From contig URNB01000001.1 in the NCBI GenBank assembly GCA_900549055.1, positions 14,852-78,851 on the forward strand: a stretch of DNA of 64,000 nucleotides. Reading direction: 5' to 3'. The stretch comes from an uncultured Oscillospiraceae bacterium (GTDB taxonomy: Bacteria; Bacillota; Clostridia; Oscillospirales; Acutalibacteraceae). The notes beneath the pieces are model-generated. The model worked only from the letters and a program-made list of their open reading frames with translations, did not search any database and was not told the origin of the DNA. This document shows, one piece after another, positions 1,124 to 60,906 of the stretch. A program made the position numbers and the translations under genes. Each line of letters opens with the position of its first letter. The first letter of the stretch is position 1.

Positions 1124-3997
1124 ATGAAGATCAAAAGGCTGTTTGCTGTTATCCTTGCGGCGTGCATGGCGTTTTCAACAGGACTTATAAGCAGCTCTGC
1201 AGAGGACGCCGCACCTACCATCTCGATCAAGGGCAATTTTTCGGTGCTTTATGTAGGTCAGTATGTTGAATTCACCTTCGGCAACCTGACCTCCGATATG
1301 GAGCTGGGAATCCTGCCGGACAACGACGGAAACCCGGGGAAATGGGGTGTGAAGAATTACCGCACCGGCAAAACGGGAACCTACAGAGAAACCTTTAAAA
1401 TGACCGACGCGGGAACATATCATGTTGCGGTTTGGACAACCGGCTGGAATTTCCAAACCTCAAAGAAAATAACCGTTGAGCCCACACCCGTGATTTCAGG
1501 CAACAAAAGAGTCGGCGTCGGAATGAATGCGACCTTTAATATTTCGGGCATTAAGTCGTCCCTTGAATTCGGAATATTCCCCGGGAACGACGACGGCAGC
1601 ATAAAATCCTACAGTGTTTCAAACTACGCCGCCGTAAACGGTGACACAAGCCGCACGGTGTCGATATCCGAACCGGGAAATTATGTTGCGGCGGTATGGG
1701 CAAGCGGCTGGAGCTTTGTAGCGCAGTTCCCGTTCAGAGTGTCCGATTCGGATAAGACTGCCTCACTTGACAAAGCATCCTACTCCGAGGGCGACACGAT
1801 AACCGTAACAACGGACAAGTGGCAAGAGAATGACTTTTTTGCGATATATAATGCCTCTGTTACGGATATAACAGCCGACACCGAAGCCGTATACAGCGGG
1901 AAAAACGACCCCGGAAAATCCTCGTATACCGTGAGTACCGCAGGCTGGCAGCCCGGAGAATACCGCTTTGTGGCGTTTGATTCGGGAGATTATTCAGCGG
2001 ATCACATAGCGGATACAAAATTCACAATAAAACAGGATAAGCGTGCAACTATGGATAAAACCACTTATACGACCGAAGAAACAATAACGGTCACCACAAA
2101 AAACTGGACATATAACGAGGGCTATTTTATCCGCATTTACAAAAAGCCGATAAGCTCGGGCTACAACAGCAACTTCGTAGCGGACACCTACGGTGCGTGG
2201 GCAAAGGAAACCTATAAATTTTATCCGTACAACTGGGAGCCCGGCGAATACCAGCTTATTGCCTTTGAATATCAAGGCTGGGTAAAGGTCAACGAGGTAA
2301 ACTTCACCGTCACCGCGCCCGAAAAGAAGGCGTTTGAAATAACCGACGGAATTCTTACCGCAAATGAGGAAATAACCCTTGATTTAGCCGAAATCTCACC
2401 CGACGCACCGGACGGCAAACTGTTTATCGGCTGGAAGACAGCGAACGGTGAAAATGCGAAAAGCCGAGTGACCCTTTCCGCGGGAGACATACTCACAGCG
2501 CAGTTCATTGATTTCAATAACGCTGACAGCACGGATTTCAAAATAACCGATACGGCTGTAAGAACAGAGAAGAGTACCGGACTTCGCTTCACGGTACAGC
2601 TGAGCAACAGACTCTGCGAAGCCCTTCCCTCTGCCGCAGAATACGGTGCGGCGGTACTTCCTTCGGATATTTTGAACGAGAACAGCTGGTCGGAGCTTGA
2701 GCTTGACAAGGCCTACCCCTACGGCGACGGCAGCTTTACCGCCGCAAAGGTTCCGGCAGAACGGCTTTTCGATTCGGAAAACGGCAGCAAAAGCTACACT
2801 GCCTGCATTACGGATATTACAGACGAAAAGCTCACCCGTCAGTATACTGTAAGAGGCTACATAAAATATACCGATATTAACGGTATCGCAAGGGTGCTTT
2901 ATACCGATTATGCCTCGGCAAATATGTATTCACAAGCAAGAGCGGAGCTTGAAGGCGGCGAGCTTTCCGTTTCCGCCCGCAGCGTTTTGACAGGTATAAC
3001 CGAAACGGTCAAAGGAATTCAAAACGGAAAATATGCGGGAGCAGACAAAATAACCGTCACCGGCAATGCAAACAACCCGAATTATTATATTTATAAGCTC
3101 GGTGAAAACGGCATTTCCGTTCGCGATGTGGTAATTGACCTCGGTCTTGTCAATCCGCTAGAAATCGTTCAGCTTTCCGATATGCATTTCAATTATCTCA
3201 ACGCAACGGATTACAAGGTAAAGAACCCCACGGTGCTTTCCACCAACGATGTACGCACCTTCGGCAAAAACGCTTCCTCCGTCGTTAAAGCGCGCAAGGC
3301 GCTTGACTTTGCAAGAACCGCCGACGCAGTGGTCTTAACAGGCGACACCATCGATTACTTAAGCTACGGCGGCATAGAGCTGCTCTATAAGGAAATATGG
3401 GATGTTATACCCGATGCCATGGTTACTATGGGTAATCACGAATATCTGCAGAGAATGCAGGGTGTAATGCCCGAAAGCCTCTCCGCCGAGAGAAGATGGG
3501 AGATACTCAGAAGCGTTTGGAAGCATGATATTGATTATACCTCAAAGGTAGTAGGCGGCAAAGTCATGCTTATCCAGCTCAACAACGGCGAGGGCAAATT
3601 CTATGCAAGCCAAAAGGCAATGCTCGAAGCCGATATAGCGCTCGCAAGAGCGAACGGCTACGCAGTTCTTGCGTTCATGCACGAGCCTATCAGTACCGGA
3701 AATGCATCGGATACCAATATTACCGCGATCCGCAAGGATGACGGCAGTGCAAGCGGAAATTACTATTCCGGTCAGGTCGGAGGGCCGAACGCCGATGCCG
3801 CCACAAAGGCGATATGCGATATTATAGCCGCAAACGGCGATATAATCAAAGGCGTTTTCAACGGTCACCAGCATGCGGATTATTATTCGGAAATACTTGC
3901 AAAAACAGCATCGGGCGCCGACACGGTAATACCGCAGTACACCTTGAGCGGCTGCATTTACGGAAACGGCAACGCTCTGAAGATCACTGTTAAATAA
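1124..3997 (+). CDS. Secreted multi-domain protein with tandem Ig-like beta-sandwich repeats and a C-terminal calcineurin-like metallophosphoesterase domain
   Basis: AAAGGAG RBS; signal peptide; two pairs of internally repeated ~90-aa domains; C-terminal phosphoesterase motifs VVLTGDTIDY, MGNHEY, GHQHADY; stop codon lies in the terminus of repeat copy 1. Confidence 0.7.
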   Translation: MKIKRLFAVILAACMAFSTGLISSSAEDAAPTISIKGNFSVLYVGQYVEFTFGNLTSDMELGILPDNDGNPGKWGVKNYRTGKTGTYRETFKMTDAGTYHVAVWTTGWNFQTSKKITVEPTPVISGNKRVGVGMNATFNISGIKSSLEFGIFPGNDDGSIKSYSVSNYAAVNGDTSRTVSISEPGNYVAAVWASGWSFVAQFPFRVSDSDKTASLDKASYSEGDTITVTTDKWQENDFFAIYNASVTDITADTEAVYSGKNDPGKSSYTVSTAGWQPGEYRFVAFDSGDYSADHIADTKFTIKQDKRATMDKTTYTTEETITVTTKNWTYNEGYFIRIYKKPISSGYNSNFVADTYGAWAKETYKFYPYNWEPGEYQLIAFEYQGWVKVNEVNFTVTAPEKKAFEITDGILTANEEITLDLAEISPDAPDGKLFIGWKTANGENAKSRVTLSAGDILTAQFIDFNNADSTDFKITDTAVRTEKSTGLRFTVQLSNRLCEALPSAAEYGAAVLPSDILNENSWSELELDKAYPYGDGSFTAAKVPAERLFDSENGSKSYTACITDITDEKLTRQYTVRGYIKYTDINGIARVLYTDYASANMYSQARAELEGGELSVSARSVLTGITETVKGIQNGKYAGADKITVTGNANNPNYYIYKLGENGISVRDVVIDLGLVNPLEIVQLSDMHFNYLNATDYKVKNPTVLSTNDVRTFGKNASSVVKARKALDFARTADAVVLTGDTIDYLSYGGIELLYKEIWDVIPDAMVTMGNHEYLQRMQGVMPESLSAERRWEILRSVWKHDIDYTSKVVGGKVMLIQLNNGEGKFYASQKAMLEADIALARANGYAVLAFMHEPISTGNASDTNITAIRKDDGSASGNYYSGQVGGPNADAATKAICDIIAANGDIIKGVFNGHQHADYYSEILAKTASGADTVIPQYTLSGCIYGNGNALKITVK

Positions 3998-4255
3998 TGT
4001 CTACTGAATAATTGCATTAGTAAATGCAATTATATAAAATCGAGTTAAAATCTCGATTTTATGGGTCAAAACCTTTGTTTTGACCGTCAGTATCCATTGA
4101 TTGTCGCCTGATTTTAAAAAGAATCAAAATGTGATTCTTTTTAAAGTGCAAGGTTTTTTCGCAAAATTGCGCAAAAACCTTGCACCTGAACAATTCAAAA
4201 GTTTACACCAACATGCTCGGGTTAAGGTGCTTTTGAATTGTTCAGCAGGCATTAA
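3995..4255 (-). mobile_element. MITE-like ~260-bp multi-hairpin repeat, copy 1 (reverse orientation relative to copies 2 and 3)
   Basis: Near-identical (reverse-complement) to 39968-40229 and 60646-60905; imperfect ~15-bp TIRs (TTAATGCCTGCTGAA ... TTCAGTAGACATTA); at least six consecutive perfect stem-loops; AT-rich versus a ~55% GC flank; no ORF. Confidence 0.7.
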
Positions 4256-4359
4256 ATAAACACTCCTCGGCTGAAAAATAAGGCGGAGTTTCTCCGTCTT
4301 ATTTTTATCCGGATAAACAGTGTGTTTTAGGAAAATTATTCAAAACAATCAAAAATCGC

Positions 4360-4388: not shown

Positions 4389-4449
4389 GATATAAGAAAC
4401 AATTGCGAATATATTGCGGCGGTTGTTTTGAAACATTGAGGTGATTATA

Positions 4450-5355
4450 ATGCTGACATATCTTTTTGAACGGATGCGTACCATTTCGTACGCGTCAAAT
4501 GCCGACACTCTGCTTATAAGAGACAAAAGGGCAAACTGTGAGCCGCTGCACAGGCACAACTACAACGAAATGATATATATTTATGAGGGTGAGGCCGTTC
4601 ACAGTATAAACGGTGTATCCTATAACCTTGTTCCGGGCAGTTTGGCGCTTCTTACCCCGAACGATGCTCACAGCTTCATATCGGTCGGATCGTTCTCAAC
4701 GGTCAACATTTGCTTCACAGACCGCGTGAATCTGCCGATTCCGAGCTATGAGACCCCGGTTGCGATACTGAACGAACAGTGCCGCATTGAAATGGAGACC
4801 CTGCTCTATCTTGCAGAGCAGGAGCTTCATTTAAACGATTCAGTATCCGACAGCATTGTGAACCATTGCATCGACTGGATGCTGCTCCTTTTTCAGAGAA
4901 ACAATACCACCCTGTCCAAAACAAATTCAAATTGGAACAGGCTTATCTGCAAAATTACAGAGGACTACAGTACGATAACGCTTGAAGAAGCGGCGGACAT
5001 CATGGGTGTTTCGGTCAGCCACTTCTGCAGGAAATTCAAAAAGGATTTCTCGGTTACCTTCCATAATTATCTTAACGAAATAAGGATTCGTCAGGCAAAA
5101 AATCTTTTGCTCTATTCCGACGATTCGGTTTCGCTTATTGCCGAAAAGGTAGGGTATCAGAACAATCCCTGCCGTTTCTACTCTAATTTCAAAAATGTTG
5201 TGGGCATGACCCCAAACGAATACCGCCGTTCCTTCAAGAAAAATCTTTACGGCTCCAAAGCTCCGCTTCGGTCATTTATACCGGAGCCTACGTATACGGA
5301 TCCCGGCAGATTTTCCGCATATAACGACGAAAAAAGAAGCAAAAACAAATCATAA
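4450..5355 (+). CDS. AraC family transcriptional regulator (N-terminal cupin sensor, C-terminal HTH)
   Basis: GAGGTG RBS 7 nt before ATG at 4450 (the ORF track's GTG at 4441 is less likely); C-terminal AraC HTH pattern ...HFCRKFKKDFSVTFHNYLNEIRIRQAKNLL... Confidence 0.85.
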   Translation: MLTYLFERMRTISYASNADTLLIRDKRANCEPLHRHNYNEMIYIYEGEAVHSINGVSYNLVPGSLALLTPNDAHSFISVGSFSTVNICFTDRVNLPIPSYETPVAILNEQCRIEMETLLYLAEQELHLNDSVSDSIVNHCIDWMLLLFQRNNTTLSKTNSNWNRLICKITEDYSTITLEEAADIMGVSVSHFCRKFKKDFSVTFHNYLNEIRIRQAKNLLLYSDDSVSLIAEKVGYQNNPCRFYSNFKNVVGMTPNEYRRSFKKNLYGSKAPLRSFIPEPTYTDPGRFSAYNDEKRSKNKS

Positions 5356-5435: not shown

Positions 5436-7262
5436 GTGGTGAGGAATTTGAACATTTCATTTGACGATTACATGAAAAAGCTTGTATCCTGCTATAAAGG
5501 AAAAGCAATAGGCGGCACGCTCGGAATGCCGTTTGAAGGATGCACAAACACAAACAGTATTGAATTTTACAAGACTCTGCCCGATAAAATGCACGGAAAT
5601 GACGATTTGGATCTGCAGGTGGTGTGGCTTGAGACATTGCTGCGGAACGGCTTTCCGATAAACGGTTACCATTTATCTGCGGCATGGCGGCATTTGAATT
5701 TCGGACCCGATGAATACGGAGTCGCGCTGCACAATTTCAAAAACAAGATTTTCGCCCCGCTTTCGGGTGTTTACGGAAACAAGTTCGGCAGCGGAATGGG
5801 CGGCGCCATAAGAAGCGAAATTTGGGCGGCATTAGCGCCGGGAGATCCCGCGCTTGCGGTAAGCTTTGCAAAAATCGACGCCTCCGCAGACCATTGCGGC
5901 AGCGGGATTTCGGGCAGTGTTTTTCTGACCGCCGTCGAAAGCGCCGCCTATACGGAGAATGATACCGAAAGGCTGATTGAAACGGGGCTTTCCTTTGTCA
6001 ATAAGGATATTCGCTTTTCCTCTGCAATAACGGACACCGTTGAATGGTGGCACGATACAGGCGATTTATTTACGGTGCGTGAAAAAATTCTCGAAAATTA
6101 CGGTGCCGATAACTGGAGCGACGTTACAATAAATGTAAGCTTTATTGTTTTGGCTTGGCTTGCGGGAGGCGGCGATTTCGGAAAAACCGTTTGCAGCGCC
6201 GTAAACTGCGGATATGACGCTGACTGCACCGCTGCGTCCGTAGGCTCGATACTCGGCATATTAAATCCCGACGGTATTGAAAAGCGGTGGACTGACCCTA
6301 TAGGCGATAGGCTTGTTTTGTCCCGTCAGATACTCGGGGTGAGAACCTCGGAAACCATGACCGGTCTGTGTGAAAAAACCGCTGCAGCCGCAATCAAATG
6401 CGGAGAATTCTATAATTCGTGTGCGCGGCTTACAGGCGTACCGCAGCATATTGCGGAAAAATCGGCTGAAATACCCGCTTGGACTGACCCCTCCCTTGCG
6501 GAAATGCTCTTCGCCCGTTCGCAGCGGGATAGTCTTTTAAGCATACTTCCGCTCGGAATAATACTTACATACCCCGAGGTGCCATCCCTTGCAATGGGTG
6601 AGGAAAAGGAGTTTTCGGCGCGGATACTTAACCCTTCAAGAACCTCAGCAATGACACACCTAAAATTGAGCGTCCCCGAATGCTTTGAACTTAGCGGCGA
6701 TGAATTCTCATTTGAACTGCCGCCGCTTTCGGAGCATGAAATACATTTTAAAATCAAGAGCAATACCGATTATAAATCGGCATTTGATTTTTTGCATTTC
6801 CTGTTTGATATAAACGGAATGCGTTATGAAGCGGAAGCCGGCATCATCTCTGCGTATCCATGGACCGAAAAGGACGGCTGTGATGACATTTCATCGCTTG
6901 AAAGCGCCCGCTATTCCCCTGCCGAAAGCTTTATAAAGCCGATTTCGCGCGGAGCAAAGGAGCTTGCAATCGAGGTTCGCCCCGCAATGCCGATGACCGC
7001 GGCGATAACCTGCCAGGGCACAAGACCGCTGAAATTATGGTTTAACGGCGAAAAAATACTTGAATACAATGCCGAGGTATATGTCCCCGGACTGCACAGA
7101 GGGCAATCCGTACTGGCGAATCTAAAGCCCTGCTGGAACAGAATCATCCTGCAGGCCGAGGACGGAAACGACGGCGAGATATTTTTTGCAATCGGTAACC
7201 CGGTTGATTGGATATGGCTCAACACGCTTGAATGGCGCAAACCGAAGGAGGAGCAAAATTGA
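5436..7262 (+). CDS. ADP-ribosylglycohydrolase (ARH/DraG) fold protein with a ~270-aa C-terminal extension; cytoplasmic
   Basis: N-terminal ARH-like motif KAIGGTLGMPFEG, acidic cluster GNDDLDLQ and C-terminal ARH motif GYDADCTAASVGSILG; no signal peptide; start codon uncertain (GTG 5436/5439). Confidence 0.55.
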   Translation: MVRNLNISFDDYMKKLVSCYKGKAIGGTLGMPFEGCTNTNSIEFYKTLPDKMHGNDDLDLQVVWLETLLRNGFPINGYHLSAAWRHLNFGPDEYGVALHNFKNKIFAPLSGVYGNKFGSGMGGAIRSEIWAALAPGDPALAVSFAKIDASADHCGSGISGSVFLTAVESAAYTENDTERLIETGLSFVNKDIRFSSAITDTVEWWHDTGDLFTVREKILENYGADNWSDVTINVSFIVLAWLAGGGDFGKTVCSAVNCGYDADCTAASVGSILGILNPDGIEKRWTDPIGDRLVLSRQILGVRTSETMTGLCEKTAAAAIKCGEFYNSCARLTGVPQHIAEKSAEIPAWTDPSLAEMLFARSQRDSLLSILPLGIILTYPEVPSLAMGEEKEFSARILNPSRTSAMTHLKLSVPECFELSGDEFSFELPPLSEHEIHFKIKSNTDYKSAFDFLHFLFDINGMRYEAEAGIISAYPWTEKDGCDDISSLESARYSPAESFIKPISRGAKELAIEVRPAMPMTAAITCQGTRPLKLWFNGEKILEYNAEVYVPGLHRGQSVLANLKPCWNRIILQAEDGNDGEIFFAIGNPVDWIWLNTLEWRKPKEEQN

Positions 7263-8194
7263 TTAAACCGGTAGGACTGTCGGTCGGCGACCTGCAGCGG
7301 AAATACGGCGATATAAAGGCACTTGAAATTGCCGCGAACGCAGGGGCGGATTCTGTGGATCTTGATTTGTGTACAGACATAAACGATTACAGAAACAAGG
7401 ACTCTCTTTACAGTAAGGGGTTTGAAGCAACGGCGGAATACTATACCGCCGTTAAGAAACGAGCGGATGAGCTTGGAATTATTATAGGTCAAACGCACGG
7501 CAAAATTAAGGGCTTTGTGAATAATAAGGCGGAGGATGACGCCCTTGTTAAAAACAGCGAATATGACTGCTTTGCAACGGCGATACTCGGCGCGGGTGTT
7601 TGCGTGGTGCACAATGCAACCTCGATTTTTTTGGGGCCTGATCCCGAGCCTGCACTTATGCACCACTTAAGCTTTGATATGTTCAGCAGAATAATACCGT
7701 ATGCCGCAAGGAACGGAATTAAAATTGCAACTGAAACCTTCGGCGACGCGGTGCGCTTTTCCGCCTGCGATTTCTTTGGAAATATAGGTGAATTTGAAAA
7801 GGCATATAATGCGGTCGCCGCGTGTGATGAATTGAAGGAGCACTTTACCGTATGCGTTGATACGGGTCATTCAAACAAGGCTATGCGTTACGGTAATCCG
7901 ACTCCGGCAGATGTTATACGCCGTCTCGGAAAAAGCGTTACGGTGCTTCACCTTAACGATAACGATACGCTGACCGATCAGCATAAAATACCCAAAACCG
8001 GCTGCATTGACTGGAACGGCGTTATGGACGCGCTTGATGGGATCGGCTACGGCGGTATATATAACATGGAGCTTAATCTGCGCCATTTCGGTGATAATTT
8101 CCTGATTGAGACCGCCGAGTTTGCCGTTAAGGTAATGCGCAATATGCTGACAGAAAGATACGGCAAAAACGCAGTATCCGAAAAAAAGCTGTAA
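7259..8194 (+). CDS. Sugar phosphate isomerase/epimerase (xylose-isomerase-like TIM barrel, AP-endonuclease-2 fold)
   Basis: AAGGAGG RBS 8 nt before TTG at 7259, overlapping the upstream TGA (TTGA coupling); motifs VCVDTGHSN, LHLNDN. Confidence 0.7.
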   Translation: MIKPVGLSVGDLQRKYGDIKALEIAANAGADSVDLDLCTDINDYRNKDSLYSKGFEATAEYYTAVKKRADELGIIIGQTHGKIKGFVNNKAEDDALVKNSEYDCFATAILGAGVCVVHNATSIFLGPDPEPALMHHLSFDMFSRIIPYAARNGIKIATETFGDAVRFSACDFFGNIGEFEKAYNAVAACDELKEHFTVCVDTGHSNKAMRYGNPTPADVIRRLGKSVTVLHLNDNDTLTDQHKIPKTGCIDWNGVMDALDGIGYGGIYNMELNLRHFGDNFLIETAEFAVKVMRNMLTERYGKNAVSEKKL

Positions 8195-15103: not shown

Positions 15104-18100
15104 TTATTTCTTTATGGATTTCTTTTTTCTGACGGCAATAATTATTATCACCGCCGCCAACACGCCGGCTGCAATTACGGCGCCTATTATAATCCATACA
15201 TAATTATTCGACGCGTCTTCCTGCGTATTTTTTGATTTGGCAGGCGTCTTTTTGCCGCCGTCAGGCTTCTTTACATTTTCCTCTGTCGGTTTTACCTCCT
15301 CCGATGTATTATCTTCATTGCCCGCGCTGTCGTTCATTGTATCGGCAATCTGATTAGTATTCTTATTGCCGTTCGATTTTTCAGGCAGCTTATCATCGGA
15401 AAGATTTTTAATACTGTGAATTGTATCCGAGGTTCTGACGATCATTACATCATCAAAGAATATACTTGTATTTCCGTCGGACACAAACGCAAGCCATGGC
15501 GTTCTTGCCGTAAACGAATATATGACCTCTGTCCATTCGTTTTGTTTAAGCGAGGATACCGACAGCATTTTTTCAACGCCGTTGTTCTTTTCCAATATAT
15601 CCGGCCATGTTTTGAATGCTAAGGATATGTTACCGGAAGCGCCTGCGGTATCGGTCATTATCCAGAATTTGAGCTTATATTCCGCACCTACGGTCAGCTC
15701 GTCGTCATAATTCACCAGGAATTCGTCGCTGACCGAGGCAAGACCCTTTCTGTGGATTGCCTTGCTGCCGCCGTGAACCTTATCTGCAACATATCCTGCT
15801 ACGCCCGGTCTGTAATATTCGTGGTCTTCGCCGAGGTCGTATTCGGTAGCGGGATAGTTTTCAAAATCCTGCACTACCGAGGTCAGTTCCCACTTAGCAT
15901 AAAGCGTCAACTTACCGGCGGGGAATATAGTCTCGGTGAATTTGCACTGCAGCTCGCTGTATACATACCAGCCTTCAAAGCGATAGCCCTCGCGCACAGG
16001 GGTAGGCAAAACAAGCTTTGCGCCTATAAGCCCCTCAATCGGAGGAACCGTAACACCCTCTGCGTTTGTCACAAAATCAATTCTTGTTTTTCTGGCTGTT
16101 GCCGTGGCGCTGCGTTTTATTCTCGGATAGAATATGCGCAGTATAGGCATTGTATCGTCAACCGTCATCCATACCTTATCATAGTCAAGCCCGGGCATAC
16201 CGCTTTTCGCATTTACACCGCACATATTGTCGGCGTTAACAAAGGTTACGCCGAGTCCAACGGCAACGCCGAAGGTATAAACATTTTCATATGTGTTTCC
16301 TGCGGCTATCAGATCTCCTCTGCCGTCCACTATTTGATCGAAATCGGCAGTGCAGGCATAGCAGTTTCTGATAATGGAATCAGGAGCGAAAGCATTGCCC
16401 AAAAGCGCACCGCAGCGTGAGCCGCCTATCAGCTTTCCTACAAAATAGCTGTCTTCGATTTTAATCGGAGAGGGCGTACCCGAAACCATACCACCCGCGA
16501 AATTGCCGCGCACGATTACGGAGGTATCGGCAAAGCATCCGCTTATGACCGGGTAATTTTCCTCTTTTACCTCATATTCCTCTCTCCAGTTCTTAACATA
16601 CGCCGCAAATGCCGCGCCGTATGCCTCGTTTTTAACGGTGGAAACGTCAATATAACTGTCAAGTATGCCGACATTTTTAATTGAAGCCTTTGTATCGATT
16701 CCGGGTATAAGTGCGCCGCGCACGTTATCAGCTTCGGTTCTGATATAAATACCGGATACAATGTGTCCCTGTCCGTCCAAATGACCCGCAAAGGCGTTGC
16801 TTATACCGAAGGTCACATACCAGTGATTCAGCTTTTTGCCGTCATACCAGTTTTCGCTTGAGGTATCATTAAGCTTTATGTCCTCTGTCAGTACATAATA
16901 TGCCGGAGTATCATTGTACACGGTATGCTCCGAAACCATTTTGTAAAGCTGTTCGCCTGTAGCAATTTGGTATGGGTCTTCTTCGGTACCTGTGCCTCCC
17001 GCATAGTCCTCCGCTTTAAGTCCGCTCCAGATCTGACCCGGAACACCGTCGGTTGAAGAATCGGACGATTTCTGATCCATATGCGGGTAGTCGTTTTCAA
17101 CCGTGTTCCAAATAGTATCCCATTTAAGTTCGGGCATAGCGTTCCTTGCGGATTCGCCTATTATCTGTTCCTCTTTTACAACATTGACCGCTATGTTCTG
17201 CGCGTCGCCGTGCCTTGCCTGCGACTGCGAAACGGTGGAATATCTTATTCCCGATGGCATACCGAAGGATTTGTCAATCGCAACGCAGCCTACGGTATAG
17301 CTGTCCGTAACATTCGCGGTACCCCACGAATCGCCGTAAAAACCGCCGGCATAGTTAGATTTATTTTCAAAGCTGCCCACAAAATAACAGCTCGTAACAT
17401 CCACAGAGCCTGCGCTTACCCCGCCTATCAGTCCGCCGACAGCCGCAGCCGCACCGAATATCGAGTCTCTTACGGAGCATTTGCTTATTCTTACGTTTGA
17501 GCCGGTTTGAATATATCCCGCGATACCGCCGAGATAGCAGTTACCTTCTCTCCTGCCGCTCAAATACGCTTTTCTTATGTTTACTCCCACAACGTTGCCT
17601 CTGCCCGCAAGCACGGGAATCAAGCCGCATTTTTCGGAAATATTATTACAATAAAGCCCGTATACCGTGTAGCCTTTACCGTTAAGTCTGCCCTTAAAGC
17701 CCGTGTTGGGCTCGGTTAAATTAATGCTGTACCATGAGTTCAGCTTTGCCGCCGTATACCAGTTTTCCGCCTTTACATCGTTAAGATAAATATCTGCCGC
17801 CAGCTCATAATAAGCACCGGGCTCGGGGTCTGTTGAAAGGCAGTGCTCCTTTACCATTTTATAAAGCTGCTCCGCGGTTTCGATTATATACGGATCGCCC
17901 TTTTCGCCGCTGCCGCTCTTATATTCCGCGGCGGTTTTGCCGCTCCAAACCTCGCCCTTTTTGCCGTCGTAATAATCGCCTACCGGCGCGTCCGAAACAT
18001 TTTTGCCCGCGGTGCTTCCCTTTATTATCGGGTAACCGCTTTTATTTATCTCCCAAACATCCCAACCGAGATTCGGCATGTTTACCTTTGCCGCGTCGCT

Positions 18101-20062
18101 CTGCATTGCGCTCTCGCCGCTGACTGCGGTGAGGTTAACGCCCTGCGAAATCCACCAGCTGTATGCCGAATACAGAGTTCCGTCCGAAATGGCGGAAGCG
18201 TCTTTAAGATAGGGTGCCAAATTACCGGTTATAAATGCAACCACGGAATATGAATTGACAATTCTGAGATAGGATGTTGCCAAAACATTCGAGGCTACTA
18301 TTCCGCCGCCCCAGCCGCTGCCTGCGGGATTTCCGTAATCATTGAATTTGGCAGCCGAGCCGCAGTATTCAACGGTTATCTTGGCATAGTGTCCGCAGCC
18401 GATAATTCCGCCGACATGGCAGTTTGCAAGATCACTGAAGTTAACGGTGTTATCCACCACGCATTTTGAAACCGTGATTACCGATGCCTTGTTTCCGGGT
18501 GCTAAATCTACGCAGCCCAAAATTCCGCCCATGTATACATCGACATTGTTATTGGGCGCGGCATATGCATACCGCACATTAACATTTGATATTACGGCAT
18601 TGCCGTTAGCTCTCGGAATAAGTCCGTATGCGTATTTTTCCTTGTAGGTTCTGTAGTACATACCGTAAACGGTGTGTCCCTGACCGTCAAAATGCCCCGC
18701 AAAGCCCTGATACATCCAGGTGGTGTCTCCGTGCGATGCCCATTCCTTAGGATTATTGTTAAGCCAGTTTTTATCCTTGATATTATTTAAGAATATATCC
18801 TTTGTTAAAACAAAGTATAAGTTTTCGGAATTTTCCTTTGTAAACGAGGTGTTTGAGGAAAAGCCGTAAAGCTGCTCCGCGCTGCTTATCTTATAAGGAT
18901 TTTCCTTTGTGCCGTCGCCCTCGAATTTTGTATCGGACGAGCCGTCCCATACCTCAAGGTCGCTGCCGCTGCCGCTCTCATAAGCGGTGCTTCCCTTAAT
19001 TGTGGGATAAGCGCCTTCATTTGCCTGCCAAACATCCCAGCCGAGCTTCGGCATATTGTTCTCTGCGCCCTTGCCCTGCATCGAAGCCTCGCTTGCAACC
19101 GGAGTAAGATTAACTCCGCCGTCGGTCGCCCACCAGCTTTGGGTGGAATACAGTGTGCCGTCGGAAATGTCCGCCGGCTTTATGCCGCCCATCCAGCCCG
19201 ATACAAAGGCAACAATCGAGTAGGAGTTGATTATTCTGACATATTCCGCTCCCCAGTGCCCCGGCGCACAGATTATACCGCCGCCCTTTCCGGCTGACGG
19301 ATTGCCGTAATCGCTGAATTTAGCTGCCGAGCCGCAGTAGCTTACAGTCACCTTTGATTCGCGAACAGGCCCTATTATGCCGCCCAAAAGGCTGCCCGAA
19401 ATCCTGCTGAAATCCACCGTGTTATCAACAACGCATTTGCTTATTTTAACATTTGCCTGATATCCCGGGGAATAATCTCCGTTGTTCTTCTGAACAAAAC
19501 CGACTATACCTCCCATATGAAACTCAACCGAATTGTTAGCCGCGGCAAACGAATGCCTAAGGTTAACATTAGTAATTTCGGCATTCCCCGTTACCATGGG
19601 TATAAGGCCGTATGTTCCGCCTGCGGTGTAGTTATCGTAATACATACCGTAAACGGTGTGTCCATGACCGTCGAAAAAACCGGAGAAGCCGAGTGAAGCG
19701 TCGTTTGCCGCGTCTGCTCCCATTTTCGCCCATTCTCTCGGCGAATTGTTCATCCAATCGGAGCTTGAAACATCGTTCAGATAAATATCGTTCGTAAGAA
19801 CATAGTATTTTTGCTCGGAATCCTTAACATTTACCCTTGCGGTAGCAAAGCCGTAAAGCTCCGCCGCGCTTGTTATTTTGTAAGGATTGTCTTTTGTGCC
19901 GGCGCCCTCAAATTCGGTATCGGACGAGCCGTCCCATACCTTTGTTTTTCCTGCGCCCGAAACCGCAATGCTTTCAATAAACAGGGACGAACAAAGCACG
20001 GCAATTACCGAAACTACCGCCGCAATTCTTGACAGCGTATCGGTTTTGAATTTAAACCTCAT
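15104..20062 (-). CDS. Giant (1652-aa) cell-surface protein with a signal peptide, four ~310-aa modules, a Listeria-Bacteroides (Flg_new) repeat, a CBM-like domain, a low-complexity stalk and a C-terminal TM anchor
   Basis: GAGGTGG RBS; signal peptide; each module has a (V/I)W(D/S)G..DPY.I.(S/T)AE(E/Q)LY(G/K) head plus GLUG-like Gly-rich beta-strand repeats (GGIVGFV, GGIIGPV, GGGIICAP); C-terminal TM plus KKKSIKK. Confidence 0.8.
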   Translation of the reverse strand: MRFKFKTDTLSRIAAVVSVIAVLCSSLFIESIAVSGAGKTKVWDGSSDTEFEGAGTKDNPYKITSAAELYGFATARVNVKDSEQKYYVLTNDIYLNDVSSSDWMNNSPREWAKMGADAANDASLGFSGFFDGHGHTVYGMYYDNYTAGGTYGLIPMVTGNAEITNVNLRHSFAAANNSVEFHMGGIVGFVQKNNGDYSPGYQANVKISKCVVDNTVDFSRISGSLLGGIIGPVRESKVTVSYCGSAAKFSDYGNPSAGKGGGIICAPGHWGAEYVRIINSYSIVAFVSGWMGGIKPADISDGTLYSTQSWWATDGGVNLTPVASEASMQGKGAENNMPKLGWDVWQANEGAYPTIKGSTAYESGSGSDLEVWDGSSDTKFEGDGTKENPYKISSAEQLYGFSSNTSFTKENSENLYFVLTKDIFLNNIKDKNWLNNNPKEWASHGDTTWMYQGFAGHFDGQGHTVYGMYYRTYKEKYAYGLIPRANGNAVISNVNVRYAYAAPNNNVDVYMGGILGCVDLAPGNKASVITVSKCVVDNTVNFSDLANCHVGGIIGCGHYAKITVEYCGSAAKFNDYGNPAGSGWGGGIVASNVLATSYLRIVNSYSVVAFITGNLAPYLKDASAISDGTLYSAYSWWISQGVNLTAVSGESAMQSDAAKVNMPNLGWDVWEINKSGYPIIKGSTAGKNVSDAPVGDYYDGKKGEVWSGKTAAEYKSGSGEKGDPYIIETAEQLYKMVKEHCLSTDPEPGAYYELAADIYLNDVKAENWYTAAKLNSWYSINLTEPNTGFKGRLNGKGYTVYGLYCNNISEKCGLIPVLAGRGNVVGVNIRKAYLSGRREGNCYLGGIAGYIQTGSNVRISKCSVRDSIFGAAAAVGGLIGGVSAGSVDVTSCYFVGSFENKSNYAGGFYGDSWGTANVTDSYTVGCVAIDKSFGMPSGIRYSTVSQSQARHGDAQNIAVNVVKEEQIIGESARNAMPELKWDTIWNTVENDYPHMDQKSSDSSTDGVPGQIWSGLKAEDYAGGTGTEEDPYQIATGEQLYKMVSEHTVYNDTPAYYVLTEDIKLNDTSSENWYDGKKLNHWYVTFGISNAFAGHLDGQGHIVSGIYIRTEADNVRGALIPGIDTKASIKNVGILDSYIDVSTVKNEAYGAAFAAYVKNWREEYEVKEENYPVISGCFADTSVIVRGNFAGGMVSGTPSPIKIEDSYFVGKLIGGSRCGALLGNAFAPDSIIRNCYACTADFDQIVDGRGDLIAAGNTYENVYTFGVAVGLGVTFVNADNMCGVNAKSGMPGLDYDKVWMTVDDTMPILRIFYPRIKRSATATARKTRIDFVTNAEGVTVPPIEGLIGAKLVLPTPVREGYRFEGWYVYSELQCKFTETIFPAGKLTLYAKWELTSVVQDFENYPATEYDLGEDHEYYRPGVAGYVADKVHGGSKAIHRKGLASVSDEFLVNYDDELTVGAEYKLKFWIMTDTAGASGNISLAFKTWPDILEKNNGVEKMLSVSSLKQNEWTEVIYSFTARTPWLAFVSDGNTSIFFDDVMIVRTSDTIHSIKNLSDDKLPEKSNGNKNTNQIADTMNDSAGNEDNTSEEVKPTEENVKKPDGGKKTPAKSKNTQEDASNNYVWIIIGAVIAAGVLAAVIIIIAVRKKKSIKK

Positions 20063-20102
20063 TTGTTTACCACCTCTACCGTAGGTATTTAAAATCTAAA
20101 AG

Positions 20103-20951
20103 TTAATTTGCAAAGTATATTTTCGACCTGTCGTTTTTTTGGTACAGTCTTATGTAATCGATATCATAGTCAGCCTTTGTGAAATTACTGCCGACAGTAA
20201 CGTTCTTTGCCCACTCGCCGCCCGAGGTACTTGTATACCCGGGTGTAAAAATGTGATTGTTGAGTATCAGGCAATGCGGGTCGTGAAAGCCCTGCATACC
20301 GCCGCTGCCGCCTATATTTTCGGCAAGCTTATATGTACTGTAGCGCGTGCCGTCAACAAACATTGATATTTCATACGGCGTCCACAGCATACCGTAGATA
20401 TGCCAGCCGCCGTCGGATATATCGAATGTGCCGTTTTTTACGGACGAAGAACGGACGCCGTATTTCTTTATGTTCTCTTCCTCTTCCCACCATTTGTGAA
20501 GCTGCGAAGAGACCGAATTATTGCCGAATACCTCAAAAATATCTATTTCGGTAAAATAATCCGCCTCCGGCTTACAGCCGAGCTTTTCGGCAATTTCTGC
20601 GCCCTCGGGGTTTACATTGCTTTTCATCCAAAGCGACGGCCAAACCCCCTGTCCCACAGGCACCCGTGCCCTCATTTCAAGATAACCGTATTTGAAGGTC
20701 ATGCTTCTGCCGGTCGTAACCGATTTTGAGGTTTTATAGCCGCCGCCCGTTTTTGAGGAGCGCAGCCGCAGGCAGCCGCCGCCGTCTGCGCCCGAGTCCC
20801 GTATGACTGCCGCAACATCGGAGGTTGCGGCAGTCGTAAGATCCGAATAGCCGTACATATAGTCGGTAAACGCCCATTTGCTCCCGTCTATTTCGGTGCC
20901 GTTGAATTCATCCGAAAAAACGAGCTTATAGCCTTCGTCACGCGTTTTCAA
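20103..20951 (-). CDS. GH16 glycoside hydrolase domain protein with no signal peptide; TTG start overlaps the upstream stop
   Basis: GH16 catalytic motif EIDIFE and KYGYLEMRARVP; paralogous to 35547-37055; starts at a TTG embedded in a T8 tract (TTTTTTTTGA). Confidence 0.75.
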   Translation of the reverse strand: MKTRDEGYKLVFSDEFNGTEIDGSKWAFTDYMYGYSDLTTAATSDVAAVIRDSGADGGGCLRLRSSKTGGGYKTSKSVTTGRSMTFKYGYLEMRARVPVGQGVWPSLWMKSNVNPEGAEIAEKLGCKPEADYFTEIDIFEVFGNNSVSSQLHKWWEEEENIKKYGVRSSSVKNGTFDISDGGWHIYGMLWTPYEISMFVDGTRYSTYKLAENIGGSGGMQGFHDPHCLILNNHIFTPGYTSTSGGEWAKNVTVGSNFTKADYDIDYIRLYQKNDRSKIYFAN

Positions 20952-23077
20952 AAAAAAGCAACAGCCTTTTTTACTCTTATAAGGTCAAGAACATTGACCG
21001 CATTATCATTATTGACATCGGCAATCCTGTTCTCTGCCGATTCAGCGCCCAAAATAATCTTTTTGAGCATCGTCACATCGCCCGCGTCGGGTGCGTCGCT
21101 GTCCTCGGCGTTCACATCGTAATTGCGAAGACCTCTGTTCTTTAAGAGCTTTTCACCCGTGCCGTACCATGCGTCACTGTCAAATTTCAAATCGGAATAG
21201 CCCGACGCCTTTACCAAACCTTCCCATGAGTCGCGGTCGAATCCGATATAATATGCGTTCGAGAAGCTGTATGCTCCGGGAATTTTGCACTCCCAATTTG
21301 ACGACTGAAGATTGACTGCCGCCGTATGCCAGCCGTATGTATAGAAATCCTTAATGGTTATATTCGCGTATCCGCCCCATACATCCGCATATGCGCCGCC
21401 CTTGGTTGCGGTCCCGCCGAGCACGGCAGAGGAATACGAATCGCCGATAGTTATCTTTGCAAGCGCACACCCTATAATTCCCGCAGTGCGTGTTCCGGTA
21501 ACCTGAACGGTATCATCCGCAGAACACCCGGAAATCACAACCTCACCCGAGGAGATTCCCGCAGTGCCGTTTGTAGCTCCTACAAACGCGGCAGCCCAAA
21601 CACCGTTTATATACGATTTTCTGATATGCAGATCGGTTATCGAGGAATCGGCGCCGATATTTGCTATAAGACCGGCATATTTATTACCGCTCAAATTATC
21701 GTTTGCCGAATAAAGACCGTAAATTGTGTGACCGTTTCCGTCAATGTGTCCCTTGAAGGTAGCCTCGTTGCGCTCCCACGACCACCAGTTGTGTGCCGGG
21801 GCGGACATTCCCCAGCTCTTGTAAAGTGTGATATCGTTCAGATAAAGATCGGAAGTTAAAAGGTAATATTTACCTGTTTCACTTGTCTCAGCCATTTTTC
21901 TCAACTGCTCCGGAGTAGCTATGAGATACGGGTCGCCCGCTTCGCCTGTTCCGCCGTCATACGCTGCGGCGGCGGTTCCGTCCCATACCTCATACTCGGG
22001 CTTAATGAACGCAGTGCTGCCCTGTATAGTCGGGTAAGCGCCCTTATTTGCCTGCCATACATCCCAGCCGAGATTCGGCATGTTAACCTTTGCGGCATCG
22101 CCGAACATCGCGGCGGAGCCGTCCACCGGAGTCAGGTTAACGCCGCCCGAGGTTGCCCACCAGCTCTGTGTGGAATACAACGTGCCGTCGGAAATATCAG
22201 CGGGTTTTATGGCGTTAAGCCAACCGCAGGTGAAAGCAACAACAGAATAAGAATTTAATATCTTCACAGACTCCGCTGCCCAGTTTCCGGGCGCGCAGAT
22301 AATTCCGCCGCCGTTGCCCGCGGGATTGCCGTAGCTGTTGAATTTTGCTGCCGAACCGCAATACTGAACAGTAACCTTTGATTCACGCACGGGGCCTACT
22401 ATACCGCCTATAAGTCCGGTAAGATTACTTAAATCCACGGTTTCATCCACAACACATTTGGTGATTTTAACGTTCGCCTGATAACCGCTTGCGTAATTGT
22501 CATTGTTTCTATCGATAAACCCGACTATGCCGCCGAAATGAATATTTGTGCTGCCGTTTGACTCCGCATAGGCATAACGCAGATTGACATTGGTTATTTC
22601 GGCGTTACCAACCGCTTTCGGAATAAGTCCGTAAGAATAGTTGACAGTATAATTCTTATAGTACATACCGTAAACTGTATGACCCTGACCGTCAAAATGC
22701 CCGGCAAAGCCATGCGCCGCCCACTGATATTTATAGTTACTCGCCCATTCTCTTGGGTTGTTGCTCAACCAGTTGCCGGCAGTAACATCGTTAAGATATA
22801 TGTCTTTGGTTAAAACATAGTATTTATCCTTTGAATTTTCCAAAGTAAAATCAGTATTGGATGAAAAGCCGTAAAGCTCCTCTGCGGTTGTTATTCTGTA
22901 AGGATCCGCCTTTGTGCCCGAGCCCTCGTATTCGGTATCGGCAGATCCGTCCCATATTGCCGCTGCCGTGTTCGCCGCGGATACGGGATAAATAACAAAC
23001 ATTGAAATTAAAAGCGCCATAGAAAGGAAAATAGAAAATACTCGCCTGCCAGTAAATTTGCCGAAGTCAGATTTCAT
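20948..23077 (-). CDS. Secreted 709-aa paralogue of the giant surface protein (two WDG..DPY/GLUG modules) with a C-terminal degenerate dockerin-like repeat
   Basis: GGAAAGGTGA RBS; signal peptide; module 1 is ~75% identical to module 1 of 15104-20062; C-terminus ADVNNDNAVNVLDLIRVKKAVAFF is a single dockerin-like repeat. Confidence 0.75.
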   Translation of the reverse strand: MKSDFGKFTGRRVFSIFLSMALLISMFVIYPVSAANTAAAIWDGSADTEYEGSGTKADPYRITTAEELYGFSSNTDFTLENSKDKYYVLTKDIYLNDVTAGNWLSNNPREWASNYKYQWAAHGFAGHFDGQGHTVYGMYYKNYTVNYSYGLIPKAVGNAEITNVNLRYAYAESNGSTNIHFGGIVGFIDRNNDNYASGYQANVKITKCVVDETVDLSNLTGLIGGIVGPVRESKVTVQYCGSAAKFNSYGNPAGNGGGIICAPGNWAAESVKILNSYSVVAFTCGWLNAIKPADISDGTLYSTQSWWATSGGVNLTPVDGSAAMFGDAAKVNMPNLGWDVWQANKGAYPTIQGSTAFIKPEYEVWDGTAAAAYDGGTGEAGDPYLIATPEQLRKMAETSETGKYYLLTSDLYLNDITLYKSWGMSAPAHNWWSWERNEATFKGHIDGNGHTIYGLYSANDNLSGNKYAGLIANIGADSSITDLHIRKSYINGVWAAAFVGATNGTAGISSGEVVISGCSADDTVQVTGTRTAGIIGCALAKITIGDSYSSAVLGGTATKGGAYADVWGGYANITIKDFYTYGWHTAAVNLQSSNWECKIPGAYSFSNAYYIGFDRDSWEGLVKASGYSDLKFDSDAWYGTGEKLLKNRGLRNYDVNAEDSDAPDAGDVTMLKKIILGAESAENRIADVNNDNAVNVLDLIRVKKAVAFF

Positions 23078-38212: not shown

Positions 38213-39904
38213 TTATTCAATGCTTATTAACCTTTCGGGGAAATCATCATCACGGTTATTATGTATTTTCGTATTGCGGCAGTTTACAAGCCTTATATCA
38301 AAGCCCTGCTTTTGAGCGGTCTTATCCCGCTCAAACACATTGTCCTCAATGCGAACGCTGTCGGCTGCCGAGACAAATATTCCGCAGCCGCAAAAGTCTT
38401 TAAAGCGGTTATTATGTATTAAAATATTTTTATGAACTCCCGCAGGGTATTCGCCGCTTTCCCCGTCATGCGACGCCTTGAATGAGACCGCCCCGTCCGG
38501 CATTGTATCGGAGGCATGTGAGCAATGCTCGAAAATGTTATTGCGTATTTCAACATTTTCGGCAGGCGCAACCTCCCACCAGCGTTTAATATCGGGAGAA
38601 AAAAGCAGCCCGGCATATGAAATTCCGTAAATATAGCTGTTTTCAATCAAAACATTCTGCGTTTGTATCAGCGCACCGCGCGCTCTGGTACTCCGCAGGG
38701 TGCAGCAGTCAATATGCACCGCCGCAAAAAATGCCTTGTTGGCAAGCACACACCCCTGTTTGACTGTTCCGCTCATATCCTCCGTCTCGAAAATTCCGTT
38801 CGGTAAGACGCTTTTTACCGTAAACTCCGCCGTTTGCAAAAAACTTTTCCTGTCATACACAGCTATTCTGTCTCCGGGCTGTGCCCATGTGCACTCGCAT
38901 ATGGCTTTTTTAGGTCTGCCCTCCATTCCGTCGGCAGTAATTGTCTTGCCGCCGTTTTCGGTTTTCACAACCTCAAGCGCCAGACCGTGAATATTTAGCG
39001 TATCGTCCCCCATTGCCTCCAAATTGCAGTTTTTAAGCACAAGCCTTCCCATAAGCCCCAATATATGTATGCCGTCGGCGTTTATCGCCATAAGGCGCTT
39101 CGAGCCCTTATTTACACGAACGGAAAAATTATCGAATGTAAAATCCGATGATCGCGGCTCCACAGTAACCGCGAAGCTTGCGGCAGAGTATACCGTTATA
39201 TTCTTTAAAGTAACCCTGCTGCAAAAATAAAACGACAGTAAGGAATGACCGTATATTTCATACCGTATATTGATCTTGTGCCCTATTTTAAGCCTGCAAG
39301 CCTCCTTTTCGGGAAGAATGCCGTCAAGCTTCAGTCTGATAATACGGTCGCTTACAACCTCATAATTAAGACCCTCATAGCGCTTTGATACCGTACCGTC
39401 CGGCAATGTGAAGCTGCGCTCCTCAATATAATCGTTATAGGTCGCAAGTGCATAATCGGGTGATCCCTTTATATCAAAGCTGTTAGTTCCGCAAATATGC
39501 TCATATCCGGTAACGGGAAATTCATCATATATCTTCACATCAACGGTTTTATTCTTGAAATCAATAGCGGTAACCTCACCGGCGGCGCCTATCGGAGAAT
39601 CGGTGTCAAAGAAAAATCCCGTTATTTCAATATCGCGGCAATCTGTGAATTCAAACGCCTCGTTAGTGGCGGATTTCGGGCCGCACGCGTCAAAATGCGT
39701 TACTATTTCCGAAAAATTCCCGAATATTTTTATATCGCTTTTACCCTTCACGGTTATAAGCCCTGAAAGATAATAGCTGCCGGTTTTAAAAACGACGCAT
39801 GAGCCGTCGGTAATACTGTCAAATAAAGCCTGAAGCTCCCCTGCGCAATCTCCCGCACAGGGTAATACTCCGTAATCTGCCGCATAATAAATTCTGCTTT
39901 TCAT
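38213..39904 (-). CDS. Right-handed parallel beta-helix (pectin-lyase-fold) protein, putative intracellular glycoside hydrolase or lyase
   Basis: GGAGG RBS; no signal peptide; PbH1-like repeats (IHNNRFKDFCGCGIFVSAADSVRIEDNVFE). Confidence 0.55.
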   Translation of the reverse strand: MKSRIYYAADYGVLPCAGDCAGELQALFDSITDGSCVVFKTGSYYLSGLITVKGKSDIKIFGNFSEIVTHFDACGPKSATNEAFEFTDCRDIEITGFFFDTDSPIGAAGEVTAIDFKNKTVDVKIYDEFPVTGYEHICGTNSFDIKGSPDYALATYNDYIEERSFTLPDGTVSKRYEGLNYEVVSDRIIRLKLDGILPEKEACRLKIGHKINIRYEIYGHSLLSFYFCSRVTLKNITVYSAASFAVTVEPRSSDFTFDNFSVRVNKGSKRLMAINADGIHILGLMGRLVLKNCNLEAMGDDTLNIHGLALEVVKTENGGKTITADGMEGRPKKAICECTWAQPGDRIAVYDRKSFLQTAEFTVKSVLPNGIFETEDMSGTVKQGCVLANKAFFAAVHIDCCTLRSTRARGALIQTQNVLIENSYIYGISYAGLLFSPDIKRWWEVAPAENVEIRNNIFEHCSHASDTMPDGAVSFKASHDGESGEYPAGVHKNILIHNNRFKDFCGCGIFVSAADSVRIEDNVFERDKTAQKQGFDIRLVNCRNTKIHNNRDDDFPERLISIE

Positions 39905-39967
39905 TTTTCCTCCAAACGGTTAGGCGGGTACGTATCACATAGGCAACAACATCTATGCCTGTTCTAA

Positions 39968-40229
39968 TTAATGCCTGCTGAACAATTCAAAAGTACCTTA
40001 ACCCGAGCATGTCGGTGTAAACTTTTGAATTGTTCAGGTGCAAGGTTTTTGCGCAATTTTGCGAAAAAACCTTGCACTTTAAAAAGAATCACATTTTGAT
40101 TCTTTTTAAAATCAGGCGACAATCAATGGATACTGACGGTCAAAACAAAGGTTTTGACCCATAAAATCGAGATTTTAACTCGATTTTATATAATTGCATT
40201 TGCTAATGCAATTATTCAGTAGACATTAA
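39968..40229 (+). mobile_element. MITE-like ~260-bp multi-hairpin repeat, copy 2
   Basis: Near-identical to copy 3 and to the reverse complement of copy 1; TIRs TTAATGCCTGCTGAA / TTCAGTAGACATTAA; 16-bp perfect stem CTGAACAATTCAAAAG...CTTTTGAATTGTTCAG plus five further hairpins. Confidence 0.7.
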
Positions 40230-40396
40230 TTATCAGTATACAGCTTTTCCCCGCTTTTGCAAATGGAGTTTTTATATTTTTTTGCACTTTTCTGCGCTGT
40301 ATTTATAAAAAACCGAATATCCCGCAGGTCTGCCGTTTGCGGAATATTCGGTATACCTAAACCGTATTTATTTTAAATCGGAATCAAAGCCGACTC

Positions 40397-41137: not shown

Positions 41138-41267
41138 TTCCCCGTCTCCTCGGATTACACTTAATAATACAAATATAACATTTTCAGTCCGCTTTTTCAA
41201 GACGAAATTGTGAACAATTTAATAACAAAATCCCGTAGGGCGGAATATACTGTCCCGACGGGATTTT

Positions 41268-59912: not shown

Positions 59913-59964
59913 TACGGCGGAAATGTTAATATAATTACAGTAAATATTCAGGGGGATGTTAAAA

Positions 59965-60905: not shown

Positions 60906-60906
60906 T

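Follow-up and report, generated by a model that had tools for sequence, protein, structure and literature searches.

What is the AT-rich, non-coding repeat of about 260 bp that occurs three times in a 64-kb stretch of DNA from an uncultured Oscillospiraceae bacterium (assembly GCA_900549055.1, contig URNB01000001.1, positions 14,852 to 78,851)? An initial annotation of this stretch, referred to here as the window, described the repeat as resembling a MITE, or miniature inverted-repeat transposable element, and considered that it might in addition supply stop codons or terminators, or belong to a structured RNA family. The analysis favours the first of these answers: the repeat is very probably a non-autonomous transposable element, a MITE, which has recently spread through uncultured human-gut Clostridia. 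This reading is carried by terminal inverted repeats (TIRs), target-site duplications (TSDs), a large number of near-identical copies that occupy non-orthologous sites in several species, and two empty sites. Coordinates throughout are positions in the 64-kb window.

The three copies stand at the places first reported and were confirmed by reading and by alignment. They are 98-99% identical (98.9% for copy 2 versus copy 1 and 98.5% for copy 2 versus copy 3), and a repeat finder independently recovered them as direct and inverted repeats of 225-273 nt with 98-100% identity. Their edges were refined by aligning 16 and later 64 copies (the three of the window with 13, then about 60, further ones), which sets the boundaries of a conserved core, AATGCC...GACATT, measuring 256-259 bp across the copies. 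The cores, their terminal repeats (coordinates for copy 2) and the flanking duplications are located as follows.

3992 to 3995, unstranded: left TSD of copy 1, AAAT on the plus strand (ATTT in the orientation of the element)
3996 to 4253, minus strand: core of copy 1, with AATGCC...GACATT on this strand; 258 bp, 33% G+C, absent at the syntenic locus L055
4254 to 4257, unstranded: right TSD of copy 1, AAAT, with a single AAAT there in the empty site of L055
39966 to 39969, unstranded: left TSD of copy 2, AATT
39970 to 40227, plus strand: core of copy 2; 258 bp, absent from L177, L178 and L179
39970 to 39987, plus strand: 5' TIR, AATGCCTGCTGAACAATT
40210 to 40227, plus strand: 3' TIR, AATTATTCAGTAGACATT
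40228 to 40231, unstranded: right TSD of copy 2, AATT
60643 to 60647, unstranded: left TSD of copy 3, AATTT, in the T-tail of the hairpin that terminates gene 59956-60537
60648 to 60903, plus strand: core of copy 3; 256 bp, the same site being occupied in all same-species contigs examined
60904 to 60908, unstranded: right TSD of copy 3, AATTT, overlapping the MATE stop codon 60907-60909

Imperfect TIRs, AATGYCTRCTGAAYAATT (AATGCCTGCTGAACAATT versus AATGTCTACTGAATAATT, 15 of 18 positions matching), are kept in all complete copies. The 15-bp TIRs with 13 of 15 matches described at first are thus real as imperfect repeats, but their outer TT/AA belongs to the TSD, and the TIR itself measures 13-18 bp. 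The element has a G+C content of 33%, compared with 47% for the window, and holds only mechanical open reading frames (ORFs) of 22-52 aa, in agreement with the initial statement that neither a transposase nor any other ORF is present. Differences among the three window copies, previously assigned to the loop of the terminal hairpin alone, do occur in the loop of hairpin 6 but also in the apical part of hairpin 1.

Target-site duplications, which the initial annotation had suggested looking for, were found at most of the distinct flank pairs: 56 of the 64 carry an A/T-only direct repeat at the core edges, of 4 bp in 37 and of 5 bp in 19. The duplicated sequence differs by site (ATTT 20, AATT 11, AATTT 7, ATATT 7, ATAT 5, and others). 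One of the remaining pairs shows a 3-bp repeat and seven show no direct repeat; in five of these seven the flanks come from two known sites, so that these pairs represent chimeric assemblies or recombinants. The target logo before insertion reads Y-T-T | A-W-W-(W)-T | A-W. An AT-rich target had been predicted, and the target is AT-only; its sequence is not TTAA, however, but a 4-5 bp A-W-W-(W)-T duplication.

Two empty sites bear directly on mobility. L055 comes from a relative with an unchanged gene order, in which the phosphoesterase upstream of copy 1 is 78% identical in amino acids. Its intergenic region is shorter by 264 bp and reads GTTAAATAAATATTC, against GTTAAAT-element-AAATAAACAC in the window; in a longer reading, ...GTTAAATAAATATTCGTCGGCT corresponds to ...GTTAAAT-258-bp element-AAATAAACACTCCTCGGCT. 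In the relatives L177-L179 the beta-helix protein is 84% identical and the site is empty of copy 2, with GATAATTACAATAGGCA in L177 against GATAATT-element-AATTAGAACAGGCA in the window and, read more widely, ...TGTATACTGATAATTACAATAGGCA in L177-L179 against ...TGTATACTGATAATT-element-AATTAGAACAGGCA. In both L055 and L177 the duplicated bases stand once, and two such precise empty sites settle the mobility of the element. Independent insertion into the same neighbourhood was also observed. In L013, a relative with a DNA identity of about 70%, the homologous neighbourhood of window copy 3 holds an insertion of its own (7024-7286), located at the stop codon of the homologue of the zinc-ribbon gene and upstream of the terminator of that gene, in the opposite orientation to copy 3 and with a different duplication.

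The element is not confined to this genome. A scan of one genome per species, using a 24-mer from the central linker as query, found 13 further copies in six metagenome-assembled genomes (MAGs) of uncultured human-gut Clostridia/Ruminococcaceae, 97-99% identical to the window copies, and a scan with the 3' terminal 23-mer reached at least 120 metagenome loci, all in human-gut assemblies and all with 96.9-100% identity. Among the matches listed, about 60 are complete copies (again 96.9-100% identical) and dozens of contigs end 5-90 nt inside the element, because short reads cannot bridge such a repeat; the same contig-break signature was seen in exact-protein look-ups of the flanking genes. The copies examined fall into 47 distinct site clusters. 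Between species the copies are 97-99% identical whereas the host genes are 70-84% identical, from which it follows that the spread was recent, as had been proposed for its mobilisation. Copy 3 is shared at the same site by every same-species contig examined, including a lineage that is 97% identical in DNA; this orthologous copy differs by 1.9% between lineages and its flanks by 0-4%, so that orthologous copies drift as neutral DNA does, without special constraint. No older, diverged copies were found by nhmmer in about 0.9 Mb of DNA, which returned only truncated copies and palindromic self-matches.

Given how such repeats disturb assemblies, it might be asked whether the copies themselves are assembly artefacts, since some metagenome contigs do link the flanks of two sites through one element. 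This explanation is almost certainly wrong: the same three insertions recur in independent assemblies of many samples, one of these assemblies being a 989-kb contig, and each copy has its own matching TSD. The linking contigs are a separate observation. In L015, L017, L037, L039, L040 (3' of the MATE gene), L096, L099, L117 and L144 one element joins the flanks of two sites; these contigs carry non-matching duplications, the far flank of L017 being the left flank of L012, and they represent either assembly chimeras or recombination between copies.

How is the element built internally, and what does its structure imply? Folded as a single strand, it forms two multi-branch domains, each consisting of a short closing stem around three perfect hairpins.

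39973 to 40117, plus strand: domain 1, with closing stem GCCTG/CAGGC around hairpins 1, 2 and 3
39978 to 40037, 40038 to 40077 and 40081 to 40107, plus strand: hairpins 1, 2 and 3 of domain 1
40125 to 40227, plus strand: domain 2, with a closing stem around hairpins 4, 5 and 6
40125 to 40137, plus strand: internal TIR-like sequence AATGGATACTGAC, which pairs with the 3' TIR and closes domain 2
40138 to 40159, 40161 to 40189 and 40190 to 40215, plus strand: hairpins 4, 5 and 6 of domain 2

The six consecutive perfect stem-loops noted at the outset are all there, each quoted stem being present, and the folding that was recommended as a check gave a predicted structure far more stable than shuffled sequence (-114.6 kcal/mol versus -47.2 +/- 4.4 for the shuffles; z = -15.3). 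The reverse strand folds equally well (-115.2), because all stems are perfect palindromes, and DNA folding gives a like result. Most likely, the six hairpins are palindromes at the level of DNA rather than an evolved RNA fold; it is possible that they are protein-binding sites or products of palindrome growth.

Several variants of this architecture were met among the copies. Hairpin 2 carries, in place of its inner part (TTTTTGCGCAATTTTGCGAAAAAA), the exact reverse complement of that sequence in L005 (about 6050-6092) and L006 (about 4605-4646), a palindrome-templated inversion. Truncated copies lacking domain 1 have different breakpoints (L098 5794-5916, still with ATAT on both sides; L107 2869-2979; L163 1959-2060), and a copy in L010 (4762-4950) is without its last 70 bp. 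A mobile sub-element consisting of domain 2 only was considered and rejected, as the copies in L098, L107 and L163 start at three points, none of them at the internal TIR-like site. L078 holds at 1552-1598 a palindrome of about 50 bp made of two element 3' ends (3' TIR and hairpin 6, mirrored), with one mismatch at the outer 5' end. No matching duplication accompanies this palindrome, which represents either a mini-derivative or a product of deletion.

Such a wealth of perfect subterminal hairpins recalls elements that are mobilised as single-stranded, hairpin-folded DNA by systems of the IS200/IS605 or REP/RAYT type rather than by a cut-and-paste DDE transposase, and the asymmetric use of targets (ATTT 20 versus AAAT 1) and the palindrome-templated inversion of the hairpin 2 tip in some copies would fit this route as well. 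It is highly improbable here, however, since such systems lack TSDs and TIRs while the present element has both, with a duplicated sequence that varies from site to site; in addition, no REP head of the GTAG/CGTC type is present, and within the 64-kb window the orientation of the element switches with the direction of the neighbouring gene. The corresponding known classes were rejected on similar grounds. REP/REPIN sequences are G+C-rich palindromes of 20-40 bp without TSD, compared with 258 bp, 33% G+C, TIRs and TSDs in this case, and IS200/IS605-derived elements have neither TIR nor TSD and insert 3' of a fixed tetra- or pentanucleotide, against the TIRs and variable two-sided duplications seen here. 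Because TIRs and variable duplications are present, the element is neither of the REP/REPIN nor of the IS200/IS605 type.

The position of the copies relative to genes raises a further question. At 42 de-duplicated sites, surveyed with simple ORF calls and each seen in the orientation of the element, the gene next to the 3' TIR is directed towards the element in 36 cases and away from it in 6. The flanking genes are convergent at 18 sites and divergent at two; at a further 18 they are in tandem and the element is antisense to the upstream one, and at two they are in tandem with the element in sense. For 16 of the 36 right-hand genes the gene end lies within 3 nt of the element, compared with 3 genes on the left. 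As null served places in the same DNA that match the target logo, are unoccupied and would be non-disruptive (49 antisense-tandem, 38 sense-tandem, 27 divergent and 21 convergent). Against this null, Fisher tests yield p = 6e-6 when the right-hand neighbour is considered and p = 0.005 when tandem regions are. The stop-codon effect arises in part because the target motif is itself asymmetric, the ratio of antisense to sense in the null being 19:8 within 3 nt of the upstream stop and 30:30 farther away. Among occupied tandem sites more than 3 nt from the upstream stop, roughly 9-11 are antisense and at most 2 sense. The element strongly favours sites just 3' of genes, in antisense to the upstream gene, and the target motif accounts for only part of this preference. 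The early suspicion that position near gene ends matters agrees with these data, in which gene 3' ends and one orientation are favoured.

All three window copies follow the same orientation rule. As copy 1 is opposite to copies 2 and 3 in absolute orientation and still keeps to the rule, the bias follows genes. An orientation linked to replication was considered as a candidate and is unlikely, with copy 1 opposed to copies 2 and 3 within 64 kb and each following its neighbouring gene; the G+C skew mirrors gene strand only and does not settle this point.

A role as a portable transcription terminator or supplier of stop codons was the function that the initial annotation thought probable for the element. 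The immediate surroundings of the copies allow this proposal to be examined, two features being of particular relevance.

4274 to 4306, plus strand: native intrinsic terminator of the phosphoesterase gene, consisting of an A-tract, a AAGGCGGAG/CTCCGTCTT stem and a T-tract
40235 to 40263, minus strand: promoter-like site, TTTGCA-17-TATACT, lying upstream of the beta-helix gene 38213-39904 and conserved in the empty L177 (about 2440-2500)

The overlap of copy 1 with the phosphoesterase stop codon was described correctly: TAA (3995-3997) shares two bases with the core, its T being the last base of the TSD and its AA the first two bases of the element. The same is true of the closeness of copy 3 to the MATE stop codon, which overlaps the right-hand duplication. 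The 16 right-hand genes that end within 3 nt of the element, together with hairpins 3 and 5, whose arms bear A- and T-tracts, would agree with a terminator function. Nevertheless, this explanation is very unlikely. The empty L055 already has TAA at the same codon and the same terminator directly after the stop. Copy 1 lies between the phosphoesterase stop codon and that native terminator, and copy 3 is placed after the terminator hairpin of gene 59956-60537, the native terminators thus persisting beside both copies. The element itself lacks the G+C-rich stem followed by a U-tract that defines an intrinsic terminator, its A/T-tract hairpins having only 2-3 G-C pairs, and a consensus scan of 39800-40450 detected no terminator-like site on either strand. 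Copy 2, finally, has its insertion point 7 nt downstream from the -10 box in the promoter-like site, so that the beta-helix gene would have the entire element in its 5' leader; a terminator between this conserved site and the gene would silence the gene.

Could the element instead be a functional RNA module, carried as its minus strand in the neighbouring mRNA, where its fold would stabilise or regulate the transcript and where positive selection would keep its orientation? The extremely stable predicted fold speaks for this explanation, as does the fact that the orientation and position bias exceeds what the target motif leads one to expect. Copy 1, in the gap between stop codon and terminator, and copy 2, in a 5' leader, would be transcribed in the same antisense sense, and 3' adducts derived from MITEs have been proposed to affect mRNA stability in pneumococci (PMC3049150). 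An analysis of 53 distinct sequences and 101 predicted pairs further found unpaired columns to be about 2.8 times more variable than paired ones and one pair to covary (A-T 15, G-C 16, G-T 14). The variability must be taken with caution, as it stems mostly from the hairpin 1 tip and the inversion of the hairpin 2 tip, and covariation is restricted to this one pair of the 101. Moreover, the two strands fold equally well owing to their palindromic stems, and the changes that break pairs comprise 26 G-T and 26 A-C, so that neither strand is favoured. Divergence of the orthologous copy keeps pace with that of its flanks, and the host genes are functionally unrelated. A search of the whole window found no Rfam family at gathering score; a permissive search returned only a sub-threshold match to TD-2 (RF03162) and noise of the hairpin-type microRNA kind, and no tRNA or tmRNA is present in the window. 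On this evidence a functional RNA module is unlikely, and the structured non-coding RNA family that had been put forward as an alternative found no confirmation in the Rfam search, the equal folding of the strands or the balance of G-T and A-C changes.

The MITE reading can now be weighed as a whole. Four of five defining features of MITEs that were tested are present: a small size without transposase coding (256-259 bp, where less than about 600 bp is expected), TIRs, TSDs that vary by site, and dispersed copies whose presence or absence differs between related genomes. The fifth is a related autonomous insertion sequence (IS) with the same ends, and here lies the first of several points that count against a MITE. 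Searches of about 0.9 Mb of DNA, of viral contigs and of phage and plasmid records revealed no autonomous partner whose TIRs match; in the 0.9 Mb, inverted pairs of TIR-like sequences 0.4-4 kb apart numbered one, which was spurious, the viral contigs gave a single chance match of a 20-mer inside a phage coding region, and the phage and plasmid records gave no match to the element. The length of the duplication is not fixed, being 4 or 5 bp, and six separate perfect hairpins are more elaborate than the structure of most MITEs. Target choice is furthermore insufficient to explain the tandem bias of 18:2, against 49:38 in the null, which hints at an effect at the level of transcription that lies outside a purely selfish-DNA model.

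As a mechanism consistent with the element being a MITE, a transposase encoded elsewhere in the host genome would bind both ends of the element, which would be excised or copied and joined into a staggered cut at the AT-only target Y-T-T | A-W-W-(W)-T | A-W; the duplication of 4 or 5 bp would arise when the cut is repaired. We infer that mobilisation occurs in trans through a DDE-type transposase. Such targets cluster at TAA stops and around terminators, with the result that copies gather immediately 3' of genes, where the terminal AA of the element rebuilds TAA and leaves the protein unchanged. Many copies seem to "overlap" stop codons because this AA and the final T of the duplication regenerate TAA. 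Copies in promoter regions, or in sense between co-directional genes, are rare and would most likely be selected against, and selection may in this way be the cause of the bias in position and orientation.

Comparison with described repeat families points to the BOX, RUP and SPRITE repeats of pneumococci and to bcr1 of the Bacillus cereus group as the nearest analogues, although the likeness to bcr1, BOX and RUP concerns architecture and genomic behaviour only and was judged by descriptions rather than by sequence comparison. BOX, RUP and SPRITE of Streptococcus pneumoniae are regarded as non-autonomous mobile elements; they are non-coding, multi-copy and tightly folded, measure about 100-300 bp, have TIRs that pair in the fold, and are enriched 3' of genes and between convergent genes while being depleted from promoter regions, and in 36 cases a gene has its stop codon encoded within a BOX repeat (PMC3049150). 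The present element shares with them its small size, the lack of coding capacity, the multiple copies, the tight fold in which TIRs pair, the enrichment at gene 3' ends and between convergent genes, and the overlap with stop codons. No similarity to these families was noticed, a direct comparison of sequences not having been made. In contrast to BOX, which is a modular boxA-B-C array, it is a fixed six-hairpin unit with a 4-5 bp AT-only duplication, its hosts are uncultured gut Clostridia rather than S. pneumoniae, and whereas ISSpn2 and IS630-Spn1 have been proposed as partner IS for BOX and RUP, none was found for it in the DNA scanned.

The repeat bcr1 has no known transposase, is flanked by 5-bp AT-rich direct repeats, varies in distribution among close strains, forms cruciform-like independent stem-loops and is transcribed with neighbouring genes (Okstad 2004; Klevan 2007; PMC3184786). 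It resembles the present element in its Firmicute host, the AT-rich direct repeats, the independent stem-loops and the absence of a known transposase. In contrast, bcr1 is about 155 bp long with two stem-loops and a fixed TTTAT target, compared with 258 bp, six stem-loops and a variable A-W-W-(W)-T, and it shows compensatory changes at the RNA level where the present element has one covarying pair. The Correia elements (NEMIS) of Neisseria are likewise MITEs with TIRs and AT targets beside genes and are co-transcribed with genes (in part from PMC3184786). They differ in their TA duplication and one long hairpin, against a 4-5 bp duplication and six hairpins in this family. The Neisseria elements also contain IHF sites and promoters, and they serve as substrates of RNase III.

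The best Rfam match, TD-2 RNA of Treponema denticola, fits the minus strand of domain 1 with a score of 28.4 bits (E = 0.02 in a 321-base search), far below its gathering score of 48.7. TD-2 is a lineage-specific multi-hairpin repeat of uncertain status, and its authors noted many pair-breaking mutations (PMC1950547). It is similar to the present element in being a multi-copy motif of consecutive hairpins in one lineage, but two loops have to take up large insertions for the two to match, TD-2 belongs to another phylum, and no TIR or target duplication is reported for TD-2, both of which the present element has. A full-text search of the literature on MITEs in Ruminococcaceae gave nothing relevant and the hosts are uncultured, for which reasons the family looks undescribed; it thus appears to be an ordinary kind of element whose particular family has so far not been described.

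Apart from the element, three other observations were made in the window. Two large neighbouring ORFs, 15104-20062 (1652 aa, Listeria-Bacteroides repeat) and 20948-23077 (709 aa, dockerin), share repeats of about 1 kb at 17862-22956 that are 65-77% identical and recur both inside each ORF and from one to the other; they encode surface proteins with repeated domains. A 42-nt direct repeat with 71% identity (TTTGCGGAATATTCGG...; 40336-40377 and 63809-63850) probably reflects chance or a terminator-like sequence common to both places; its first copy overlaps an apparent terminator hairpin of gene 40397-41200. Lastly, an exact search of the protein index gave no result for the AraC-family ORF 4441-5355 (GTG start, 304 aa), which a difference in the start codon chosen probably explains: same-species contigs call a product of 301 aa, and the true start probably lies 9 nt downstream of the mechanical call.

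What, then, is the significance of this family? In practical terms, the element breaks short-read contigs and makes chimeric joins in the MAGs of an abundant uncultured gut lineage, so that knowing its sequence and its target aids assembly, binning and strain typing, and its insertions are clean presence/absence markers. It is doubtful that an element spread by transposition has come to act as an orientation-specific RNA or transcription module in the 3' untranslated regions, and some 5' leaders, of dozens of unrelated genes. If this were true, a 258-nt block of six hairpins, always with the same strand in the message, would alter mRNA stability or processing, which would explain the 18:2 and 36:6 orientation bias that goes beyond the effect of the target motif. 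Beyond its two-domain, six-hairpin architecture and its orientation bias, this is an ordinary selfish element, and the family offers a compact case in which to ask what reason a MITE has to hold perfect palindromes, six in number, and why it keeps to a single orientation with respect to transcription.

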